A stretch of DNA of 64,000 bases from Heptranchias perlo (Eukaryota). The stretch's first letter is position 1; every line of letters begins with the position of its first letter. A model generated the notes under the pieces. That model searched no databases, was not told the origin of the DNA, and saw only the letters and a list, made by a program, of their open reading frames with translations. Below are positions 8,714 to 51,714 of the stretch, piece after piece. A program made the translations under genes and the position numbers. The stretch is taken from NCBI RefSeq assembly GCF_035084215.1, contig NC_090331.1:33604001-33668000 (forward strand). Reading direction: 5' to 3'.

Positions 8714-8956
8714 GGGGGTGATTTTAAACCCCAAGAACAGGTGGTTTGGGTGCAGGAGGGAGTTAAAAATAGTTGTTTTTTTGGGACACAGCTGCAAAAT
8801 TTTTGGACCTTGCATTCCCAGTGGGAAGCCTGTACTTCTACATGCTGATGTTAAACCTGGAAATAAAGTCAGGTTGCGATCGCGACCCGAGAAACAACTA
8901 TTTTCAACTCCCACCTGGCCCCAAACCACCTGTTCTTGGGGTTTAAAATCACCCCG
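8714..8956. mobile_element. Palindromic Harbinger-type MITE
   Basis: Perfect terminal inverted repeat of about 36 bp (GGGGTGATTTTAAACCCCAAGAACAGGTGGTTTGGG) extending imperfectly to about 80 bp, flanked by TTT. Inserted in Myb exon 2. The end resembles the left end at 12539. Confidence 0.9.
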
Positions 8957-13068: not shown

Positions 13069-15066
13069 ATGGGGCAGGGGGAGGCGCAATGGATCTATTC
13101 TACAGTACATCTGAGGAGGAGGCACATCACTCGGCATGACATGCAGCTCTGTGATCTGCAAGTGCACAAGACAGAGGTGCGCAACAAGAACCTGGAGAAG
13201 GGCAGAGAAGGGACCGAGGGGCTGAGGTCGCAGGAGGCACTACCCATGTGAGAGGGTCAATAGATAATAGAGGCTGAGCTTCCTGGACCTCTGTGATGAA
13301 CAGTGCCTACGTAGGGTCAGATTGAGTTGCCAGGAGGTCGCAGACATCTGCAGGCTCCTTCGTGAAGAGCTGCTCCCGACTGGGCCTGGTGGCCACGTAT
13401 TGCCTGTTGCAGTTAAAGTTACCACTGCCCTCAATTTCTTCACCTCCTGTGACATCTCCAGGGTGTCTCAGTCGTCTGCAAATAAATGGATATGACAGGT
13501 GACAGATGGCTTGTTTACCAGGGCATCTGACTACATCAATTTCCCCTGTGACAACATCAGCCAGACTGAGAGCGCAGTGGGTTTCAACTCTCTGGCTGGT
13601 CTACCGCGGGTGCAAAGCACAATTGATTGCAAACACGTAGCAATCCGAGGACCTCCACGTGCCAGGACTGTTCATAAACCTAAAGGGATAGCATTTTTTT
13701 ATTCGTTCATGGGATGTGGGTGTCGCTGGCAAGGCCAGCATTTATTGCCCATCCCTAATTGCCCTTGAGAAGGTGGTGGTGAGCCGCCTTCTTGAACCGC
13801 TGCAGTCCGTGTGGTGACGGTTCTCCCACAGTGCTGTTAGGAAGGGAGTTCCAGGATTTTGACCCAGCGACGATGAAGGAACGGCGATATATTTCCAAGT
13901 GGGGATGGTGTGTGACTTGGAGGGGAACGTGCAGGCGGTGGTGCTCCCATGTTCCTGCTGCCCTTGACCTTCTAGATGGTAGAGGTCGCGGGTTTGGGAG
14001 GTGCTGTCGAGGAAACCTTAGCGAGTTGCTGCAGTGCATCCTGTGGATGGTACATACTGCAGCTATGGTGCACCGGTGGTGAAGGGAGTGAATGTTTAGG
14101 GTGGTGAATGGGGTGCCAATCAAGCGGGCTGTTTTATCCTGGATGGTGTCGAGCTTCTTAAGTGTTGCTGGAGCTGCACTCATCCAGGCAAGTGGAGAGT
14201 ATTCCATCACACTCCTGATTTGTGCCTTGTAGGTGGTGGAAAGGCTTTGGAGAGTCAGGAGGTGAGTCACTCACTGCAGAATACCCAGCCTCTGACCTGC
14301 TCTTGTAGCCACAGCATTTAAGTGGCTGGTCCAGTTAAGTTTCTGGTCAATGGTGACCCCCCAGGATGTTGATGGTGGGGGATTCGGCGATAGTAATGCC
14401 GTTGAATGTCAAGGGGAAGTGCTTAGACTCTCTCTTGTTGGAGATGGTCATTGCCTGGCACTTGTCTGGCCCAGCTGGTGTGTGACCACCGGATGAGATT
14501 TCTGCAGGTGTGTGCCAGGTTCCCCGGCAGCTGTCATGATTCCTTCATTTTGCGCCAGTCCAACATCCCAGACCTCTTCCACACACAAGACAGACCTAAG
14601 GGTTGGCTCCTTGGAGACAAGGGATATCCCCTGCAGGCATGGTTCATGACACCTGTGAGAAATCCCACCAACGATGCACAGCAGCAGTACAACCAGAGCC
14701 AAATCATCACCAGGTCTGTCATTGAACAGGCCGTGGGAATGCTGAAGATGGCGCTTCAAGTGCCTGGATTGATCTGGGGGAGCCCTTCAGTACTCGCCAG
14801 CGAGGGTTTGCAGAATAATCATTGTGTGTTGCGTCCTGCACAACATCGCTCAACAGAGATGGTTACAGATGGAGGAGCTGCAATGCGCTCATAAAGAATC
14901 CTAATCTGCTGGCAATATTGAAGAAGACAATGAGGAAGAGGAGGAGGAGGAGGAGGAAGACTATGAGGAGGAGGAAAATGAAGATGGGAACCTATTGCCA
15001 GAACAGCAGCGCACATTGCTGCCCGTGATGCCAGGGATTCCCTCATCACGAACAGGTTCTCATAAT
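13069..15066 (+). pseudogene. Harbinger (HARBI1-like) DDE transposase, frameshifted and split by a LINE
   Basis: LSFLDL.DEQCLRR, LPVAVKVTTALNFF, GLPRVQSTIDCKHVAI, [LINE], QLVCDHRMRFLQVCARFPGSCHDSFIL, WLLGDKGYPL, TRSVIEQAVGMLK, CCVLHN, then an acidic tail. The DDE triad is recognisable. Confidence 0.93.
13694..14470 (-). mobile_element. CR1/L2-group LINE 3' fragment (distinct family)
   Basis: YKAQIRSVMEYSPLAW...RRSFIVAGSKSWNSLP...FKKAAHHHLLKGN with an A-rich tail. Same family as 55154-56972 and 44585-44912. Confidence 0.9.
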
Positions 15067-15399
15067 GAGATCCGCAACATGAAGACTTTGAACTACTCAG
15101 ACCACCAGGCACAACCACCACCACCGCCAGCAGCCCCCCCTCCTCCGTTTGCACAAACCGGTCCTTCAACTATGCATACACCCATTGCACACGCTCCCAA
15201 TGGGTGGCATCATGTCTTGGCATTCATGATGAAGCACATGAAAGGGCAAATTCACAAAAGGGACTCAATAATGGGCAAGACATGGTAGTGGTGATGAGAA
15301 TTATAACATTTAATGTGACATAAACAAAAAATATATAAATTAACATGACATTTCGTCACTCACCCTTGTGCGTACACTTGGTGAATTACAATACCTTCG

Positions 15400-16955
15400 C
15401 CTTTCTCTTCCTAGCACTTCTAGGTGGTGCAAAGCGTGGGAGCGCTTTGAGTGGAGTCCCCACTTCCATGTCCCCTTTCGCCATCATCCTCTCCCTGGCC
15501 AGCAGGCTGGTGAGCGGATGTGATACATTCTAAGGCTATGGCTAATGTATCTGTCTGCCTGTTTAAGGCGTCAGAAATGTTGGCATCCTGAGTCCACAAG
15601 GCCGTGGTCATGGCCTGCATGGACTCATTAGAAAGCCATGCTGGAAGCTCAATGGAGGATATCATTCTCTCCATCGCAGACTTTCCCGCACTTACTGCGC
15701 CACCACTCCACCAGCGACGGAGTTGGACTCCTCTATCCTCTCCGCTATTGCGGAGAGTGTGCGTGGCACATCGTCCAGTACCTCGCTAAGGTGCAGCTGT
15801 ACCTCTATCATTCTCAATCTCAATGATGGCCATCAGGGTTCAGCATCTATGTCCAGCTGAGCAGAGCTCGGAGAGGAGTGCACCCCCTGGTACGGACTCT
15901 CTGCAGCTGCCCTTGCCACCAGTGTCTGTTCATGCTCACTTGTGAGTGTTGAATCACCAGGTGACAACTCAACTATCTGGCTATCAGGATCCATCAAAGT
16001 ATGCTGGTGCATGGCTGTATTTCATGTGACGCTACACCCTCAGAAGGATTGAACCCCTCTGAGGAATGGCCTTCTTCCATAGTGGCCGATTCTCCTTGAA
16101 TCCGTGAATGCCCTGGAAGACAACATAAACCAATATTAATTATTCATCGGAAAAGTGACAGTCTTTCCAGTGACCATACTGAGGTGTGGAACAGGTCAAT
16201 CATTGATAACTTCAATCCATCATGTTTGTGAAGGATGTTAAAGTTCAGGTCACCAGCCATCTGGGGGTTGCCAGCCTCCACCTCCGACGGTCAGGCAGGC
16301 AACCGTCCGTTTGATGTCCATCGCCTCCTCCTCTGGATCTGTCAACGGTGCTATTTGTGGTGGTCTGCCTCAAGTTCTACTCCTCTCCCTTGAATTTTGC
16401 GCTCTCTTCTCCTACAAGGGGAGTGACTAAAGGTGATGTGTTCACCTGATGGATGCATTGCTTTGGGTCAGGCTGACAATGAAACCGATCCATCAGAGGG
16501 TGAGTATCAGACAGATTCATCACATTGCATCAGGATTGAGGTGAGTGGCAGTGGTGGGTGCACAAATGAAGAGGTGAGGAAGTGCATAGAGAGTGAAGGT
16601 AAGTTGATGATGAAACTTAAGTGGGTGTGAGAAGTGATGTGGTGCAGTAGGCTTGCCAACACAGGGTGAGAAGTCAGGGGGTGGGGGGGGTCTTTTCACA
16701 GGATGTGGGTGAATCAGCAATTGTACTCACTTTTCCTGACCTGGCTAGGTCATTAAATCGCTTTCTGCATTGAACCCAAGACCTGGGCACTGTGCTCCTG
16801 CTGCTCAGCTCATCTGCCACTTCTAACCATGCCGTGTTAGTGGCAGAAGCAGGTCTCTTCCTCATGTCAGCTGGGTACAGGGTACCTCTCCTGCTTCTCA
16901 CACCAGCCAGTGGCACCTCAAGGGAACCATGGCTGAACTGGGGTGCTGCCTGGAA
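15400..16955 (-). pseudogene. Harbinger Myb/SANT-like DNA-binding partner gene (NAIF1/MSANTD-like domain)
   Basis: Exon 1 reads AAPQFSHGSLEVPLAGVRSRRGTLYP...AWLEVADELSSRSTVPRSWVQCRKRFNDLARSGK with a GTGAGT donor. Exon 2 begins EKRAQNSRER after a TTGTAG acceptor near 16411. Exon 3 includes ORF 15420-15674. Confidence 0.85.
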
Positions 16956-23580: not shown

Positions 23581-25797
23581 ATTGTATTTAATGCAACAAT
23601 GACTTAACTTTGTGTGTCCCAAAATTGTTTCTCAGTCTTGCAGCATTAAATATCTGAATCTGTGCAGAAGTGTTTGTGGTTGCTGATCAAATTCTGGCTT
23701 TGAGTTAGACAGCAGCCAATAAACAATATGATACGAACACAATTTTTTTTCAAATTGTCCTGGAGGTTCTCATTATATGAACTCGGCAATAACAGTGATA
23801 TCCTGTAATATCCTTGATGCTAAGCAAGACAATATGAAGGACTTCCTATTGCATTCTAATCCTTCTGAACTAAAACTGAAAAAAAATAGTTCATATTGAG
23901 ATTCACTGATATTGAAAAATGTTTCTTCACAGAGTAACCTGGTAGCATCCGTTACCTGGGAAACTAAGGTTGCATGAAGAGTTCTCCTGGAGAGATATAA
24001 TGAAATTGAAACTTTTTTCCTTGAGCCTGGTTAAAAATGTCAGCACAGAAAAATTAATGACTCACAATCTGTTAACTGTAGCAGCTTTTCTAATTTGAAT
24101 TTCAGGGGATTTAAAATTTACTTTCTATAAGAATTATTTTGAGGGTTTTTTTTCAATATGTCTAAACAAAGCCACTGATGATTATATGTCATGTTTTCTT
24201 CTAATACAAGAAATGTTGAGTGGTGCTTTATGTTCTAGCCATCTAGGCTTTATTATGATGTTCAGAAGGGATTATTTCAGGGTCAGTGTGGTTTTAAATA
24301 GCATTGCCACAAGGGGAAGATTCAGGTCTCTATTCTGTCAGATTAGGGATAGTTTACAATTAATACATCGGGAAAATATAGTTTGTCGTAAGTTTTAAAG
24401 AATGGAGTGAAGAAGATAGTGCTGATGGTTTCTACTGCAGCATGTTTGTGACTGAACTCATTGCTGTCTACCCCCCAGTGTTGTCAAATCCAAACTCTGC
24501 TGGAGTCTGTTGCTTTTCTGGGGTGAGGATGGAGTGGGTGGTTGTCATTTGACCTGATTGTCAATGCACTGAACACACCTTAGACATCAAACACAAAGTC
24601 TTCAGGAAAGATAGGGAAGGAAAGAAAGGGGGAGGGGGGGTGGCACTATTGATTAAGGAGAATATTGTAGTGCTGGAGAGAATGTCCTGGAGGGGTCAAG
24701 GACTGAATCTATTTGGTTAGAGTTAAGAAACAATAGAGGTGCCACTGCACTACTGGGTGTATTCGATAGGCCACCAACTAGTGGGAAGGATATAGATGAA
24801 CAAATTTGCAGGGAAATTACAGAGAGGTGCAAAAGCTATAGAGTAGTGATAATGGGGGACTTTAAATATCCAATATAGACTGGGTTAATAATAATAAGGG
24901 GCAAAGAGGGGGAGGAATTTTTGAAGTGTGTTCAGGATAACTTTCTTGACCAGTACATTTCCAGCCCAATGAAGAAGGAGACATTGCTGGACTTGGTTCT
25001 AGGGAATGAGGTGGGCCAAGTGGTGCAAGTGTCAGTGGGGGAGCATTTAGGGAGCAGCGATAATAGTATCATAAGATTTAGAATAGGTATAGAAAGGACA
25101 CAGACCACTCTAAAGTAAAAATACTCAACTGGAGGAGGGCCAATTTCAGTGGGATGAGAACAAATAAGTTGGAATCAAAGATTGATTCCAATTGAACAGT
25201 GGGCTGCCTTTAAAAAGGAGATGGTTCGGGTACAGTCTAGGCACATTCCCTGAGGCAGAAAGGTAGGGCAACTAATACGAGAGCTCCCTAGATGACAAAA
25301 GAGACAGAGAGTAAGATGAAGCAGAAAAAAGGGGCATATAACAGATGTCAGGTTGATAACACAAGTGAAAATCAGGGAGAATGTAGAAAATTCAGAGGGA
25401 AGTGAAAAAGGAAATAAGAGGGGCAAAGAAAGAGTATGAGATTAGATTGGCAGCCAACATAAAAGGGAATCCAAAAGTCTTCTACAAACATATAAATAGC
25501 AATTGGGGCCAATTAGGGACCATAAAGGAGGTCTACTCATGGAGGCAGAGGGCATGGCCGAGGTACTAAATGAGTACTTTGCATCTGTCTTTACCAAGGA
25601 AGAAGATGTTGCCAGAGTCTCAGTAAAGGAAGATATAGTTGAGATACTGGATGGGCTAAAAATTGATAAAGAAGAGGTACTAGAAAGGCTAGCCTTACTT
25701 AGGTCACCCGGTCCAGATGGGATGCATCCTAGGTTGCTGAGGGAAGTAAGGGGGGAAATTGCAGAGGTACTGGCCATAATCTTCCAAACATCCTTAG

Positions 25798-26014
25798 TAA
25801 ACAATTTTACAACACCAAGTTATAGTCCAGCAATTTTTTTTGAAATTCACAAGGTTTCGGAGGCTTCCTCCTTCCTCAGGTGAATGTGGAAAATGAGAAA
25901 GGAGGAAGCCTCCGAAAGCTTGTGAATTTCAAATAAAATTGCTGGACTATAACTTGGTGTTGTAAAATTGTTTACAATTGTCAACCCCAGTCCATCACCG
26001 GCATCTCCACATCA
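25798..26014. mobile_element. Short Penelope-type fold-back insertion (217 bp) with hammerhead motifs
   Basis: Flanked by the direct repeat AAACATCCTTAG (25786-25797 and 26015-26026) inside a CR1 ORF. It has inverted arms of about 80 bp and the tail CCCCAGTCCATCACCGGCATCTCCACATC, shared with 50497-50622. Confidence 0.88.
25845..25885 (-). ncRNA. Minimal type I hammerhead ribozyme motif
   Basis: The minus strand reads AUUCAC-CUGAGGA-A-GGAG-GAAGC-CUCC-GAAA-CC-UU-GUGAAU: core CUGAnGA/GAAA/UH, a 6-bp stem I and a 4-bp stem II. The stem III palindrome is mutated here (GAAACCUU versus GAAAGCUU in the other arm and copy). Confidence 0.75.
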
Positions 26015-27716
26015 AAACATCCTTAGATACAGGGGTGGTGCCAGAGAACAGGAGAATTGCAAATGTAACATCCTTGTTCAAAAAAGGGTGTAAGGATAAA
26101 CCCAGCAACTATAGGCCAGTCAGTTTAACCTCAGTGATGGGGAAACTTTTAGAAACGATAATCCGGAGCAGAATTAACAGTCATTTGGACGAGTGTGAAT
26201 TGATTAGGGAAAGCCAGTATGGATTTCTTAAAGGCAAATCGTGTTTAACGAACCTGATAGAGTTTTTTCATGAGGTAACAGAGAGGGTAGATGAGGGCAA
26301 TGCAGTTGATGTGGTGTATATGGACTTTCAAAGTAAATAAAGTATCGGCTTGTCATCAAGATTGTAGCCCATGGAATAAAAGGGGCAGAAGCAACATGGA
26401 TACAGAATTGGCTAAGTGACAGGGATCAGAGAGTAGTGGTGAACAGTTGTTTTTCGGACTGGAGGGAGGTGTACAGTGTTGCTCCCCAGGGGTCAGTGTT
26501 GGGACCACGGCTTTTCTTGATATATATTAATGACTTGCACTTGGGTGTATAGGGCACAATTTCAAAATATGTAGATGACACGAAACTTAGAAGTGTAGTG
26601 AACAGTGAGGAGGATAGTGATAGACTTCAAGAGAATATATACAGGCTGGTGGAATGGGTGAACACATGGCAGATGAAATTTAATGCAGAAAAATGCGAAG
26701 TGATATATTTCGGTAGGAAGAATGAGGAGAGGCAATATAAACTAGAGGGCATAATTCTAAAAGGGGTACAGGAACAGAGAGATCTGGGGGAATATGTACA
26801 CAAATCGTTGAAGATGGCAGGGCAGGTTGAGAAAGCGGTTAAAAAGCATACAAGATCCTGGGCTTTATAAATAGAGGCATAGAGTACAAAAGTAAGGAAG
26901 TCATGATGAACCTTTATAAAACATTGGTTCGGCCACAACTGGAGTACTGTGTCCAGTTCTGGGCACTGCACTTTAGGAAAGCCCTTAGAGAGGGTGCAGA
27001 AGAAATTTACTAGAATGATTCCAGGGATGAAGGACTTTAGTTACGTAGTTAGACTGGAGAAGCTGGGTTGTTCTCCTTAGAACAGAGAAGGTTTTGTGGA
27101 GATTTGATAAAGTTATTCAAAATCATGAAGGGTCTAGACAGGGTAGATAGAGAGAAACTGTTCCCATTGACGGAAGGGTCACGAACCAGAGGGCATAGAT
27201 TTAAGGTGATTGGCGAAAGAACCAAAGGTGACATGAGGAAAATCATTTTTACACAACAAGTAGTTAGGATCTGGAATGCCCTGCCAGAGCGGGTGTGTTG
27301 GAGGCAGAGTCAATCATGGCCTTCAAAAAGGAAACTGGATAAGTAGTTGAAAATGAAAATTGACAGGGCTACGGGGATAGGGCGAGGGAGTGGGACTAGC
27401 TGGATTGCTTTTGCATAGAGCTGGCACGGACTCAATGGGCCGAATTGCCTCCTTCCGTGCTGTAATCTTTCTTTGATTCTATGAAAGCTTTGTCTCTCAT
27501 GGCTTTCTGGTACATTAAGCTGTTCTTGATGATGCAATATGATATTTCTTGAATTTAAGGTAATCATTTACAAGCAATTCCTTGTGTCATGTTCTTCATA
27601 GACCTCAGCAATCCATCTCTCAACAACAGCTGGTCTACAGTTTGCATGCGATAAAATTCAGTAGTCCATTCACTTCTTTTGATACCATTCCTACCCAAAG
27701 AATATTTAAAGATAAT

Positions 27717-27905
27717 GGGTGTAATTCTGACTTTTATCAAGGGGCAAAAAATGGGCGCTAGCCAATCGTCTGCTCGTTTTATACCCTGCCTGATTTTCTT
27801 TCCAATCGACTACAATGGAAAAGAAAATAAAGCAGGTTGTAAAACTGCTGGTCGATTCGCTGTCGCCCATTTTTATGCCTGTTGATTAAAGTTAATGTTA
27901 CGCCC
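27717..27905. mobile_element. Palindromic Harbinger-type MITE (189 bp)
   Basis: GGGTGTAA...ACTTT / AAAGT...TTACGCCC with TSD AAT; an imperfect palindrome along its whole length. Confidence 0.8.
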
Positions 27906-28099
27906 AATTGCTTTTCAATGGATAGAAATATTTTGCAGACATTACAAACAAATATTATGTAATATATTTTCATTTTGTAATGTATAAATATTCCCCCAAA
28001 AAAATTATCCATATTAGCTAGAACCTTTATTTTTGTCTTATTTAAATTATCATTTCAGGCAATTGGTATCTGAATATACTACGATATTTTTTTTTTCTT

Positions 28100-31816: not shown

Positions 31817-32546
31817 ACAAGCCAAGTGTCATTTTTAAATCCTTTCAAAGTTTCTGTCAGTCCCTTTTGAAACTGTTTGTTTAAAAACATGTGAAAATAA
31901 TGGTAAATTTATATTGTTTTGTAAGCTTTCGTAATTAGTTCTTGGTTTCATGTGGAATTTTCTGGTTTGCAAACTAGAAATTATTGATCATGATTCCCAT
32001 TTAATATAACTTGTATCCTGAAGCAATATCAGTAAGAAAGTGCAGATTTTTGACACTTTGGGCCCGATTTTAGCACCCGCTCTCGGGTGCGTTCTCGGCG
32101 GGGGGGCCTCGAAAATTGCAAAATGGAGGAGCGGGACCGGATCGCGCCTCGATCCCGCCCACTTCCGGGTTCCCCGCTGACGCGCGGGCGTGCGTGCGCA
32201 GCCCCCGCTGGTGGGAATCCCGCAGGCAATTAAAGCCAGCGGGATGTCACTTGACGCTATTTACTTTGCTATTTCAGGTCATTAACTGACCTGATTAAGG
32301 GACTGTGTGTGATTTTTGTGCAACATGGGACTGTTTCCCGTACTGGGGGAAACACTCCCAGCTGGAATGGACGTGTTGCAGCTGTCAGCCTGCGGCAGTT
32401 GCAAAGGTCCATTTGACAGGTTGGGGGGGAGACCCTCACTCATTGCAGGAGGCCACTCTGTCACTTGGGACAAAGTTTGGCCTCCACCACCCTCCTCCTG
32501 ACAGTCAAAGTCACCAACCTGCACACTTACCCCGGGGTTCGGGCAC

Positions 32547-33071
32547 ATGTACCTACCTTGCGGACCCCCTCAGATGTACATCTTGTGGATGGGGGTCGCC
32601 GTAGCTGCAGTCATGACCTCCTCAGGGGGCGAACAGCATCACCAGCCTCGCCAGCCTCGCCATCCACACCGTCCACCTCTGACACGTGGAGCTCCACAAC
32701 AGAGTGCTGTGACACATCCACCTGTACAGCAGGAGGGAGGGCTACCACAGAGAGAGATGCGTCGCAGACGGCACTACCCTCGCCACACGTTCCACAGACT
32801 GAGGCGCAGCCTCCTGGACCTCTCTGAGCAGCAGTGCACACGGAGGCTCAGAGTCACTCGACATGTAGCCGTGGACATCTGCAGCCTCTTTCATGCCGAG
32901 CTGCTCCTGGCTGGCCCGTGCACCATCTTCCTACCTGTCGCTGTCAAAGTCACCACTGCCCTCCCGAACTTCTCCTCCGCATCCTTCCAGGGTGCCACCG
33001 GGGACATCGCCGATGTCTCTCAGTCGTCTGCGCAGAAGAGCCCTGCAAATACACCTACACCCACTCTGTAG
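32547..33071 (+). CDS. Truncated Harbinger transposase ORF (N-terminal region only, 174 aa)
   Basis: Open frame with RRRRHYP, LLDLSEQQCTRRLR, LPVAVKVTTAL and FQGATGDIADVSQSSA; no DDE residues. Expression is unknown. Confidence 0.5.
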   Translation: MYLPCGPPQMYILWMGVAVAAVMTSSGGEQHHQPRQPRHPHRPPLTRGAPQQSAVTHPPVQQEGGLPQREMRRRRHYPRHTFHRLRRSLLDLSEQQCTRRLRVTRHVAVDICSLFHAELLLAGPCTIFLPVAVKVTTALPNFSSASFQGATGDIADVSQSSAQKSPANTPTPTL

Positions 33072-33603
33072 TGACACAATGGGTGGCATCAGTGGTGGGT
33101 CCTCGTAGTGATACCCAGGAGTGGGCTTTATTGCACAAACCGGACAGGATTCACGAAGACATGGCAGTAGTGGTGCCAATATAATGTGTGATGTGAGTTG
33201 TTCTGAAATTCAATAGAAGTAACAACCATGACAAACCCTCAAACACCCTTGTGCATCCCCTTCATGCTCACGACACGTTTGCCTTACGCTGCCTACTGCA
33301 CATATGTGATGCATGCCCTGTGGCTGCAGCACAGGTGGTGGCAGGTTGAGTGAGGCTGGCCGTGAGAGAGATGCATGAGAGGGTGAGTATGGGATAGAGC
33401 CATGAGATTGTATGAGGATTGGGTTGCGTGTTAGTGGCGGGGTGAGTACTGGCGAGGTGAGTAGGTGCAGGTAAGATGAGGATGAGGTTTGAGTGGGTAT
33501 GAGGGGTCATGTGACAGAGTAGTGTTGGCAGTGCCGAAGGAGATGTGGGGTGGGGGCAGTGATGTAGCAGACGGAGTGTAGGGGAATGACTACGTGTACT
33601 CAC

Positions 33604-33849
33604 TGTGGCTGACCTACTGAGGTCATTAGACCGCGTCCTGCACTGTGTGCAGGTGGGCGATATGTTGGTGGCGCGGGTGACCCCCTCTGCCACCTCGAGC
33701 CAGGCCTTCCTGGTGGCAGAGGCGGGCCGCTTCCTCCCGCCCGCCGGGTGGAAGATCTCTGTCCTCCCCCTCCTCCTCACCCCATGTATTGATACCTGGG
33801 GTGAGGGATCATTAAACTGGGAGCAGCCGTCCCCCTGGGCTGCTTCATG
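33604..33849 (-). pseudogene. Harbinger Myb/SANT exon 1
   Basis: VRRRGRTEIFHPAGGRKRPASATRKAWLEVAEGVTRATNISPTCTQCRTRSNDLSRSAT followed by a GTGAGT donor; frameshifted near the start. Confidence 0.8.
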
Positions 33850-34639
33850 CAGTCATCTTTGCTATTTCTTGCAGCATCTGTCAGTGGAGGACTGCCCCTT
33901 TAAATAGAGCGCCTCCAGCTGACAGATCTTACTGCGCATGCGCAGCCCGCCCGACGCGCAGATCAGCAGCGGGGAACCCGGAGGAGCAGGTAAGTGGATC
34001 CAATTAGTGGTTTGCCTGCTGCGATCGCGCAGGAAACCCACTAATTTCTCGTAACGCGCCCGTTTGCCCATCTGCCGGGAACCCGCACCCCTGGTAAAAT
34101 CAGGCCCTTTATGTTAAGTGCATTTGACATTTCTGACCAAATAAATTACTATGTTTTAATTTAAATATATTTGCTTATTGAAATATCTTTGTTTTTGTAA
34201 TCATTTTAATTATGATATATGGCATTTTTTGAATCCTCATTATCGTAAATATTGCTTTAAAATGTCCAGTTAAAAATCTGAGCAGGACTGTGCACAAGAA
34301 TGTGATTACACTGCTTCTGTTTAAAGTAATATGAGAGGATCTGGTGATTAATTGAACACTGAGCCTTGAGATATAATTTATTAATGTACCAAAGTATTGT
34401 ACTACAGAGTAGTCGGATGCAGCTTCTTCGTTACTGTTTGCTACACAATGGGTTCCTGATTGCAGGCAAACCATCTGAAGATTGCAAGCCACTTTCCCCA
34501 TGAGGAGGGAGGAAAACTCCAAAGGATAAGTTAACTTGGGTTGCTCTGAGGCACCATCTAGGAACAAGAAATACAGCAGTCTTGGCAGAGGATTGACAGC
34601 AAATCCTGTGCCCACCTTCTACACAGTGAGCTCCACTTA

Positions 34640-48790: not shown

Positions 48791-49745
48791 CTAGTCAGTA
48801 ATTAGCACATTCCGTTTCATACATTTATGTATGTTTATTCAATATTTACTGTTCGTTTGTTTAGCAAGATCAGGTGGCTAAATAAACCCCAGCCACCCTT
48901 CCCCCAACCCCCACCATTTCTGATGCTTTATACAATATGTTTCCTTAAAATGTGCAGCACACCTCCAAATCTGCAGTCACCTTTCTGATTTAAAGGTGTT
49001 ATCATAGAACCATACAGCACAGAAGGAGGCCCAACATGCCTATGCGAGCTCTTTGGAAGAACTATCCAATTAGTCCCACTCCCCTGCTCTTTCCTCATAG
49101 CCCTGAAACTTTTTCCCAGCTTCTTTAGTCTCCCCACATAACTGAAGTTCCTCAGCCCTGGTACCATTCCAGTGAATCTCCTCTGCACCCTCTCCAAGAC
49201 CTTGACATTCTTTCTAAAGTTTGGTGCCCAGAATTGGACACAATGGGCAGCATTTTAGCACCCGCTATAGGGTGCGTTCCTGGCGGGGGGCCCCGAAAAT
49301 CGGGAAATCCCGGAGCGGGACCAGAGCCCGCCCTGAACCCGCGCACTTCCGGGTTCCCCGCTGACGCGCTGGCGTGCGCGCGCAGCCCCCGCTGGTGGGA
49401 ATCCCGCAGGCAATTAAAGCCAGCGGGATGCCACTTGAAGCTATTTATTTGGCTTGTTCAGGTCATTAACTGACCTGATTAAGGGATTATGTGAGGAGGG
49501 GTGGGATTTTAGAGCAAACTGGGACTGTTTCCCACACTGGGGGAAACAGTCCCAGTTCAAATGGACCTGTTGCAGCTGTCAGCCTGTGGCAGCTGCAAAA
49601 GTCCATTTGACAGGTTGAGGGGGGGGGGAGACCCTCACTCATTGCAGGAGGCCACTCTGTCACTTGGGACAAAGTTTGGCCTCCACCACCCTCCTCCTGA
49701 CAATCAAAGTCACCAACTAGCACACTTACCCCGGGGTCCAGAGAC

Positions 49746-50264
49746 ATGTACCTACCTTGCGGACCCCCTCAGATGTACATCTTCCAGATGGGGGCCGCCG
49801 TAGCTGCAGTCATGACCTCCTCAGAGGGCGAACAGCATCACCAGCCTCGCCATCCACGCCGTCCACCTCTGACACGTGGAGCTCCACAACAGAGTGCTGC
49901 GACACATCCACCTGTACGGCAGGAGGGAGGGCTACCGCAGAGAGAGATGCGTCGCAGAGGGCACTACCCTCGCCACAGTGTCCACAGACCGAGGCTCAGC
50001 TTCCTGGACCTCTCTGAGCAGCAGTGCACACGGAGGCTCAGAGTCACTCGACATGTAGTCGTGGACATCTGCAGCCTCTTTCATGCCGAGCTGCTCCCGG
50101 CTGGCCCGAGCACCATCTTCTTACCTGTCGCTGTCAAAGTCACCACTGCCCTCAACAACCTCTCCTCCGCATCCTTCCAGGGTGCAACCGGGGACATTGC
50201 CGATGTCTCTCAGTCGTCTGCACAAAAGAGCCCTGCAAATACACCTACACCCACTCTGCAGTGA
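49746..50264 (+). CDS. Truncated Harbinger transposase ORF (N-terminal region only, 172 aa)
   Basis: Paralogue of 32547-33071, with RPRLSFLDLSEQQCTRRLR and LPVAVKVTTALN; no DDE core. Confidence 0.5.
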   Translation: MYLPCGPPQMYIFQMGAAVAAVMTSSEGEQHHQPRHPRRPPLTRGAPQQSAATHPPVRQEGGLPQREMRRRGHYPRHSVHRPRLSFLDLSEQQCTRRLRVTRHVVVDICSLFHAELLPAGPSTIFLPVAVKVTTALNNLSSASFQGATGDIADVSQSSAQKSPANTPTPTLQ

Positions 50265-50496
50265 CACAATGGGTGGCATCAGTTGTGGGTCTTCATGGTG
50301 ATCCTCAGGAAAGGGCATTATTGCACAAACCAGGCAAGATTCGCGAAGACATGGCAGTAGTGGTGCCAATATAATATGTAATGTGAGTTGGTCAGAAATT
50401 CAATATAAGTAACAACCATGACAAACCCTCAAACACCCTTGTGCATCCCCTTCATGCTCACGACACGTTTGCCTTACGCTGCCTACTGCACATATG

Positions 50497-50622
50497 ATGT
50501 GGAGATGCCGGTGATGGACTGGGGTTGATAATTGTAAACAATTTTACAACACCAAGTTATAGTCCAACGATTTTTATTTGAAATCTACAAGCTTTCGGAG
50601 GTTTCCTCCTTCCTCAGGTAAA
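50497..50622 (-). mobile_element. Short Penelope-type insertion (126 bp) with a hammerhead motif
   Basis: Flanked by the direct repeat CTACTGCACATATG (50483-50496 and 50623-50636). The paralogous site at 33293-33306 has a single copy and no insert. Confidence 0.92.
50583..50622 (-). ncRNA. Minimal type I hammerhead ribozyme motif
   Basis: The minus strand reads UUUAC-CUGAGGA-A-GGAG-GAAAC-CUCC-GAAA-GC-UU-GUAGA: intact core, palindromic AAGCUU stem III, and stem I UUUAC/GUAGA. Confidence 0.75.
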
Positions 50623-50926
50623 CTACTGCACATATGTGATGCATGCCCTGTGGCTGCAGCACAGGTAGTGGCAGGTTAGGTGAGGCTGGCCGTGAAAGAG
50701 ATGTATGAGAGGGTGAGTATGAGATAGAGCCATGAGATTGTATGAGGATTGGGTTGAGTGGTAGTGGCGGGATGAGTACTGGCGAGGTGAATAGGTGCAG
50801 GTACGATGAGGTTGAGGTTTGAGTGGGTATGAGGGGTGATGTGACAGAGTAGTGTTGGCAGTGCAGAAGGAGATGTGGGGTGGGGGCGGTGATGTAGCAG
50901 ACGGAGTGTAGGGGAAAGAGTGTTTT

Positions 50927-51172
50927 TTGGCTGACCTACTAAGGTCATTGGAGCACCTCCTGCACTGTATGCAGGTGGGTGATATGTTGGTGGTGCAGGT
51001 GACCTCCTCTGCCACCTCGAGCCAGGCTTTCCTGGTGGCAGAGGCAGGCCGCTTTCTCCCGCCCGCTGGGGGGAAGATCTCTGTCCTCCCCCTCCTCCTC
51101 ACCCCATGTATTGATACCTGGAGTGAGGTATCATTAAACTGGGAGCAGCCTTCCCCCTGGGCTGCTCCATGC
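50927..51172 (-). pseudogene. Harbinger Myb/SANT exon 1 (splice donor lost)
   Basis: QFNDTSLQVSIHGVRRRGRTEIFPPAGGRKRPASATRKAWLEVAEEVTCTTNISPTCIQCRRCSNDLSRSAK. Confidence 0.8.
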
Positions 51173-51714
51173 TGTGATTTTTTCTGTTTGTTGCAGCATC
51201 TGTCAGTGGAGGACTGCCCCTTTAAATAGAGCTCCTCCAGCTGACAGATCTCACTGCGCATGCGCAGCCCGCCCAACGCGCAGATCATCAGTGGGGAACC
51301 CGGAGGAGCAGGTAAGTGAATCCAATTGGGCTACAATCGCGTGGGTGGCTGACTGATTTCACCGGGCGCGTTACCCACGCGCCCGATAGCCCGCCCGCCG
51401 AGAACCCGCAGCCCTGCTAACATCGGGCCCAATACTCCAGTTGAGGCCTAACCAGTGATTTGTAAAGATTTACCATCACTTCCTTGCTTTGTACTCTATG
51501 CCTCTATTTAAAAAGCGAAGGATCCCTTACGCTTTTTTAACAGCCTTGTCAACTTGTTCTGCCACCTTCAAAGATTTGTGTACATGAACCCCCAGGTCTC
51601 TCTTTAAAGTTGTACCATTTCCTTTTTATTGATTTTACTCATTCTTCCTTCCAAAATGCATCTTGATGAAAATGTAACACTGGTCAACAGCTAGTTTCCA
51701 CCAGTTCATTGAAA

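Follow-up and report, generated by a model that had tools for sequence, protein, structure and literature searches.

The 126-bp insert at positions 50497 to 50622 (locus 1) of the window, the whole 64-kb stretch of DNA analysed here, is most likely a short end piece of a Penelope-like element (PLE), of a kind already described, and not a new ribozyme-driven element. In the reading to which we give a probability of about three in four, it is the end module of an EN+ PLE, a pseudo-LTR (pLTR) followed by a tail, copied into a Harbinger-type element by PLE enzymes. A separate non-autonomous lineage is unnecessary to explain it. The PLE assignment is likely, judged from terminal features, and the family is known here from end modules that carry no RT or GIY-YIG open reading frame. 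On this reading the insert is what a known class ordinarily produces, chiefly useful because it is clean, can be dated and has its empty site alongside. It bears on the in vivo role of PLE hammerheads, since the copies seen retain the cut site and stop just upstream of the motif; the hammerhead could mark the transcript start, stall the reverse transcriptase (RT), or have no role in copy length.

Insertion into an intact target in a Harbinger-type host

Sequence comparison delimited the insert, which reads on the minus strand as a hammerhead motif, the rest of the pLTR and the tail. It is flanked by identical 14-mers at 50483–50496 (at the 3′ end of the element) and 50623–50636 (at its 5′ end), and the same 14-mer is present as a single copy at 33293–33306 in a paralogous Harbinger-type copy. 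Exact 14-bp direct repeats spaced 110–170 bp apart occur once in the whole 64 kb, and that pair is the one at locus 1. At the junctions, one base (5′) and as many as three (3′) can be attributed to either element or target, the last three bases of the 3′-end copy (50494–50496) also matching the 3′ end of the family. These results show that the target was intact before the insertion and was duplicated through a staggered cut. The initial annotation had proposed a 126-bp insert with a direct repeat of about 14 bp and an empty site visible in the window, and both proposals were borne out, the second also by contigs from public runs X1, X8 and X10.

In these contigs the empty form joins 50482 directly to 50623, skipping 140 positions with 14 letters shared. 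It was present in three of the four public runs (six contigs in X1, one each in X8 and X10, none in X5). The three runs represent three organisms, among which X1 may be the window's own sample and hence non-independent. Because the empty joint is found in three runs from three organisms, the empty site can be regarded as the normal state of the Harbinger-type family. Position 50529 is the sole listed variant at which the window differs from nearly all contigs (97% of the depth in X1), and the comparison suggests an insert with few private changes.

The host copy spans about 2.1 kb (49245–51430) and contains a decayed HARBI1-like frame, which matches 'putative nuclease HARBI1' of Heptranchias perlo with 66% identity (E 3e-49; one hit among 54 candidates). 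The paralog (32060–34107) has a 13-bp terminal inverted repeat with 12 of 13 positions matching; the search that found it detected none in the host copy. Since no Pfam domain was found in four frames of the two Harbinger-type copies, the host was identified through the HARBI1 match and the terminal inverted repeat of the paralog, which support its assignment as a probable Harbinger-type element in a shark-like genome. Host and paralog were aligned over 2031 sites, of which 180 (8.9%) differ. The insert had been called younger than an already young Harbinger copy; its nested position confirms that it arrived later than the host, but the divergence of 8.9% gives no support for a young host.

Pfam analysis of 11 of the 45 open reading frames of at least 120 aa in the window revealed RT domains in three and DDE_Tnp_4 in one, with no GIY-YIG match among the 11 scanned. 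A fragmented older relative of the Harbinger host with DDE_Tnp_4 (66–72% identity), interrupted by other repeats, was found at 13227–13465, 14427–14894, 15146–15413 and 16463–16876. Two imperfect, MITE-like hairpins of 210–250 bp with about 71% arm identity lie at 8715–8955 and 27708–27914.

The hammerhead motif and the sequence downstream

A minimal type I hammerhead was recognised at 50583–50623 on the minus strand, with core C3 at 50617, by a descriptor, by folding and by the published consensus. Its parts follow in the order stem I 5′ strand, CUGAGGA, an extra A, stem II, GAAA, G-C, U16.1, U17 and stem I 3′ strand. Stem I has 6 bp (7 with flank), its outer one or two pairs using junction bases, and stem II has 5 bp with a 3-nt loop. 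The palindrome named as stem III has no loop, and one molecule by itself cannot close it. Cleavage is predicted after GAAAGCUU, between 50589 and 50588 and 34 nt inside the insert, a position that fits the published scheme for minimal hammerheads (min-HHRs). Every item of the min-HHR consensus is present (CUGANGA-H, G10.1–C11.1, GAAA, palindromic 15.2/16.2, UH and a short stem I), and the hammerhead claim of the initial annotation is thereby upheld for the minus strand. As for its details, the core stood; stem II proved to be 5 bp and not the 4-bp GGAG/CUCC, and stem III is reduced to a palindrome without a loop. Compared by eye, a turtle row in the available part of the PMC4209133 alignment also has GAAA-G-C-U-U and a 5-bp stem II, with CAAAUAAA coming after; this row is not marked there as linked to a PLE open reading frame.

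The minimal-hammerhead descriptor, composed after the motif had been seen, identified two motifs in the window, with C3 at 50617 and 25879, both of the same family. Its background was a mean of 0.015 per dinucleotide-shuffled window, three of 200 shuffles having one. The proposed check with hammerhead models was negative: Rfam hammerhead families gave no match at gathering and only two unrelated chance matches appeared at E ≤ 10. This blank was not counted against the hammerhead because minimal motifs lack helix III. Scans for more copies of the motif returned 0 and 0 in viral contigs and 0 and 0 in prokaryote genomes. A metagenome match (L001) was rejected as chance, with 24 of 28 bases only.

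Folding in short context gave a stem I probability of 0.97–0.99 for six of the seven pairs. With about 140–220 nt of host flank per side (361 nt), the probability of stem I was 0.08 and that of stem II 0.96–0.99. The self-duplex of the 6-nt palindrome is weak (−4.3 kcal/mol). Covariation was read over three arms: all 28 cells were paired, and in stem I one change was two-sided and two were one-sided. As 238 of 500 shuffles did equally well, the result is not significant with three rows. An alternative 3′ strand of stem I is common; in X1 contigs it accounts for roughly half the depth at 50585 and 50586. According to the available text of the published work, min-HHR motifs were not cleaved as monomers and only weakly as dimers (PMC4209133), and the hammerhead of an anole PLE was cleaved solely with the element's own protein (PMC11167929).

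What had been described as an 85-nt tail is present in sequence, though not as a single tail: it comprises about 50 nt of pLTR and a PLE tail. The pLTR part includes AATAAA just 3′ of the hammerhead (50573–50578, minus strand), a possible polyadenylation signal. The tail itself is an optional A/C-rich 3′ extension of 37–40 nt (50494–50533, minus strand), A or C making up 28 of its 40 bases. It is present at locus 1 and in one arm of a second locus described below, and is missing from the other arm and from two long public contigs. A stem-loop was predicted over the pLTR end and the first half of the tail (50516–50566, minus strand; z −2.1), with a counterpart at the second locus (z −2.9) whose pairing is partly different. 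The fold of the whole insert was not significant (z −1.25), and all three of its sense frames contain stops. No Pol III B box was found within one mismatch on either strand. There are no tRNA genes in the window, and the insert has neither a tRNA head nor a simple-repeat 3′ end.

A second locus and the family in public contigs

Another insertion of the same family, overlooked in the initial annotation, was found at 25797–26014 (locus 2). It lies in a LINE frame with RVT_1 (Pfam), which we take to be of CR1 type, and is bordered by a target-site duplication of 11 bp (12 with a shared G) at 25786–25796, within the RT frame, and 26015–26025. Two arms are joined there head to head, with a short word shared at the junction. 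The inverted arm (25797–25893, minus strand) is a pLTR without tail that ends 14–17 nt upstream of C3 and has a broken stem-III palindrome. The direct arm (25894–26014, plus strand) carries pLTR and tail, starts at core U4 and has G8 changed. Thus the hammerheads of both arms are damaged. The arms agree with each other at 79 of 82 positions, and the direct arm agrees with locus 1 at 114 of 121. Relative to C3, the 5′ ends of the window's three arms lie at −5/−6 (locus 1), +1 (direct arm) and −14/−17 (inverted arm). No further copy was detected in the window by nhmmer, which gave three strong hits and two others at E 0.07 and 1.3.

The 7-nt word TCCACAT (element strand) occurs just upstream of stem I (25884–25890) and again at the tail end (26006–26012 and 50497–50503); this repeat could favour template jumps or be due to chance. 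The target sites 33293–33321 and 25771–25795 weakly resemble the tail end, with 4.3% and 13% of 20,000 random sites scoring equally in this post hoc comparison.

To describe the wider family, contigs from public runs were compared with the insert, the evidence being 23 of 241 loose ends, 15 of 24 joints and 32 of 19,139 aligned pieces. The RNA origin of runs X5–X7, X9 and X13 is a guess, and summed contig depth was not read as copy number. A total of 16,011 X1 contigs align to a 240-base stretch that includes Harbinger flanks. At the 3′ end, among the ends listed, the tailed form accounts for 22 X5 contigs, which stop at 50494 before unrelated flanks (agreement 0.41, median 255 letters); the tail-less boundary is marked by two long contigs, ending at 50531 (X1) and 50533 (X5).

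At the 5′ end, the X1 contigs listed depart at 50619 (55 contigs, agreement 0.49) and 50623 (46 contigs, agreement 0.54), having few letters in common before many divergent continuations, and an X5 contig among those listed ends at 50613. A 2395-letter X1 contig of depth 20 leaves the reference at 50622, and other long X1 contigs among those listed are alike, which suggests that unique flank begins soon after the hammerhead. The listed contigs suggest that 5′ ends cluster within about 20 nt of the hammerhead without one fixed base. Contigs of X8 and X10 have a 16-letter upstream word in common, the start of which is matched by the inverted arm of locus 2; the family therefore extends 5′ beyond the end of the locus 1 copy.

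One joint listed for X1 connects 50617 head to tail back to 50528, with 33 letters between and a depth of 81, and points to a few tandems in the family. It may represent a short tandem of about 120-bp units with two hammerheads. No tandem of this unit was found within the window. Summed depth over the tail (50497–50533) in X5 and X8 is several-fold above that over the hammerhead region (50565–50620). The contig data suggest related subfamilies with a common tail but different upstream parts. We found no description of the shark family in the literature searched, a scope that left most subscription papers and Repbase outside.

Mechanism, alternatives and known systems

Several marks of PLEs are found in the two insertions: a hammerhead in a terminal repeat, an optional tail, an inverted 5′-truncated copy (at locus 2 only) and target-site duplications of 14 and 11–12 bp. 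The shark element may have a Neptune-type affinity. In the available parts of the sources, an inverted 5′-truncated copy beside the 5′ end and a 30–40-bp tail at one end only are described for PLEs (PMC8557442, PMC3846280), and Drosophila Penelope carries a 34–37-bp repeat. The link to PLEs suggested earlier is sustained by the consensus hammerhead, the tail and the inverted-pLTR-plus-tail form of locus 2. The end of a truncated PLE, one of two origins offered, is favoured by the locus 2 form, the upstream continuation and the intact hammerhead at the 5′ end of locus 1. The other, a discrete non-autonomous family, keeps some probability because the observed 5′ ends gather near the hammerhead.

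The simplest model is target-primed reverse transcription from the tail end by a PLE protein, finishing just past the hammerhead. By analogy with the anole PLE, the GIY-YIG domain would nick the target, and RT would start internally at the A/C-rich tail end with a primer-template match of up to 3 nt. Since the copied strand includes the cut site, the RNA that served as template had not been cleaved, unlike what a linear retrozyme monomer would give. Synthesis of the cDNA would stop once it had passed the core by 5–6 nt, because the transcript, started in the pLTR, has its 5′ end close by (run-off) or because the folded ribozyme terminates it early. A lone hammerhead without helix III would be silent unless a second copy pairs with it or a PLE protein helps. 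The available text on the anole PLE reports internal RT starts at two sites, one on either side of the tail, within an A/C-rich stem-loop, no effect of hammerhead mutants on insertion, and unprocessed RNA as the main substrate (PMC11167929). For Drosophila Penelope, partial sources place the transcript start within the pLTR and 46 bp upstream of the intron that spans 416–491, and the hammerhead C3 at 496, if the same numbering applies.

A more far-reaching proposal, which we consider doubtful, is that the end module of a shark PLE is copied at near-fixed length, RT running from the tail to the upstream edge of an uncleaved hammerhead that marks the template 5′ end or stops the enzyme, and that the resulting 125–140-bp units form a self-propagating family free of open reading frames, thousands or more in number. 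It is unlikely that the short copies form a discrete non-autonomous mini-element, a separate lineage of about 125–140 bp in which pLTR-plus-tail copies give transcripts that PLE protein mobilises again in trans. Such an element would suit the 5′ ends near the hammerhead edge in all three window arms, the long contig leaving at 50622 together with the other clustered ends, the high abundance in X1 (a count with Harbinger flanks included) and the head-to-tail joint. It has precedent in the available literature, in which pLTR cis-sequences suffice for trans mobilisation in Adineta (PMC3846280) and non-autonomous PLE derivatives are known in Chlamydomonas. However, the 5′ ends of the three arms spread over about 20 nt, the family reaches further upstream, and both B box and tRNA head are absent. 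Moreover, no master mini-copy is needed for so short a product, which internal initiation on an autonomous transcript would give as well.

The initial annotation had also considered a retrozyme- or SINE-like element, a reading contradicted at locus 1 by the lack of a tandem, Pol III B box, tRNA head and simple-repeat tail. It is highly improbable that the insert is a monomer of a non-LTR retrozyme whose template was a self-cleaved or circular RNA derived from a tandem array. The type I hammerhead, the single X1 tandem joint and the word TCCACAT shared by the region upstream of stem I and the tail end agree with such an origin, as does the occurrence, in the available text of Li et al. 2026 (10.64898/2026.07.22.740005), of retrozymes and monomers derived from pLTRs in one chondrichthyan. 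Yet locus 1 is a single unit and locus 2 a fold-back, the hammerhead is whole with its cut site well inside the insert, the 3′ end is fixed at the tail and not permuted, and the upstream sequence is unlike the tail beyond 7 nt; the motif is minimal, whereas retrozymes in the accessible part of PMC7229834 have the canonical type with loop-loop contacts. A tRNA-derived SINE was ruled against by the missing B box, tRNA-like head and simple-repeat end. That no insertion occurred, the other copy having lost sequence between chance repeats or the assembly being faulty, can practically be dismissed, for although no contig listed spans the whole stretch, the empty form is present in three of four runs, the same sequence lies in an unrelated LINE host with its own target-site duplication, and the 14-bp repeat pair is the only such pair in the window.

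The preferred reading, a PLE end module, was compared with described systems from the available parts of the respective sources. Metazoan PLE min-HHRs (Cervera & De la Peña 2014, PMC4209133) are alike in the core, the extra base before stem II, G10.1–C11.1, the palindromic 15.2/16.2, the short stem I and the U-rich and AU-rich flanks. That source describes them as mostly dispersed single copies, opposite-strand pairs being known as well, and the rows compared from its supplement file 2 include no shark row and no member of this family. PMC2377424 and PMC6155905 were among the other sources consulted.

Complex insertions of EN+ PLEs (Arkhipova et al. 2013, PMC3846280; Craig et al. 2021, PMC8557442) resemble locus 2 in the head-to-head inverted arm and the tail on one arm, and are alike in target-site duplications of about 10 bp and, it seems, in heavy 5′ truncation. 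The shark insertion differs in being the end module alone, with no open reading frame, and its duplications measure 11–14 bp compared with 8–10 bp in the Adineta examples given in PMC3846280. Poseidon PAc of Anolis carolinensis (Frangieh et al. 2024, PMC11167929) shares the two 3′ ends around an A/C-rich tail, the pLTR hammerhead and the uncleaved template; unlike the shark insert, with stops in its three sense frames, the PAc open reading frame begins inside the hammerhead. Non-LTR retrozymes (Cervera & De la Peña 2020, PMC7229834; Li et al. 2026) are likewise short, non-coding, related to pLTRs and dispersed as monomers, with a type I hammerhead. They are defined by tandem hammerhead units and circular RNA, whereas the shark copies are single or fold-back and combine a minimal motif with a PLE tail. 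According to the accessible text of Li et al. 2026, one chondrichthyan has hammerheads in tandem repeats as well as in monomers, and PLE insertions are mostly 5′-truncated with one terminal repeat.
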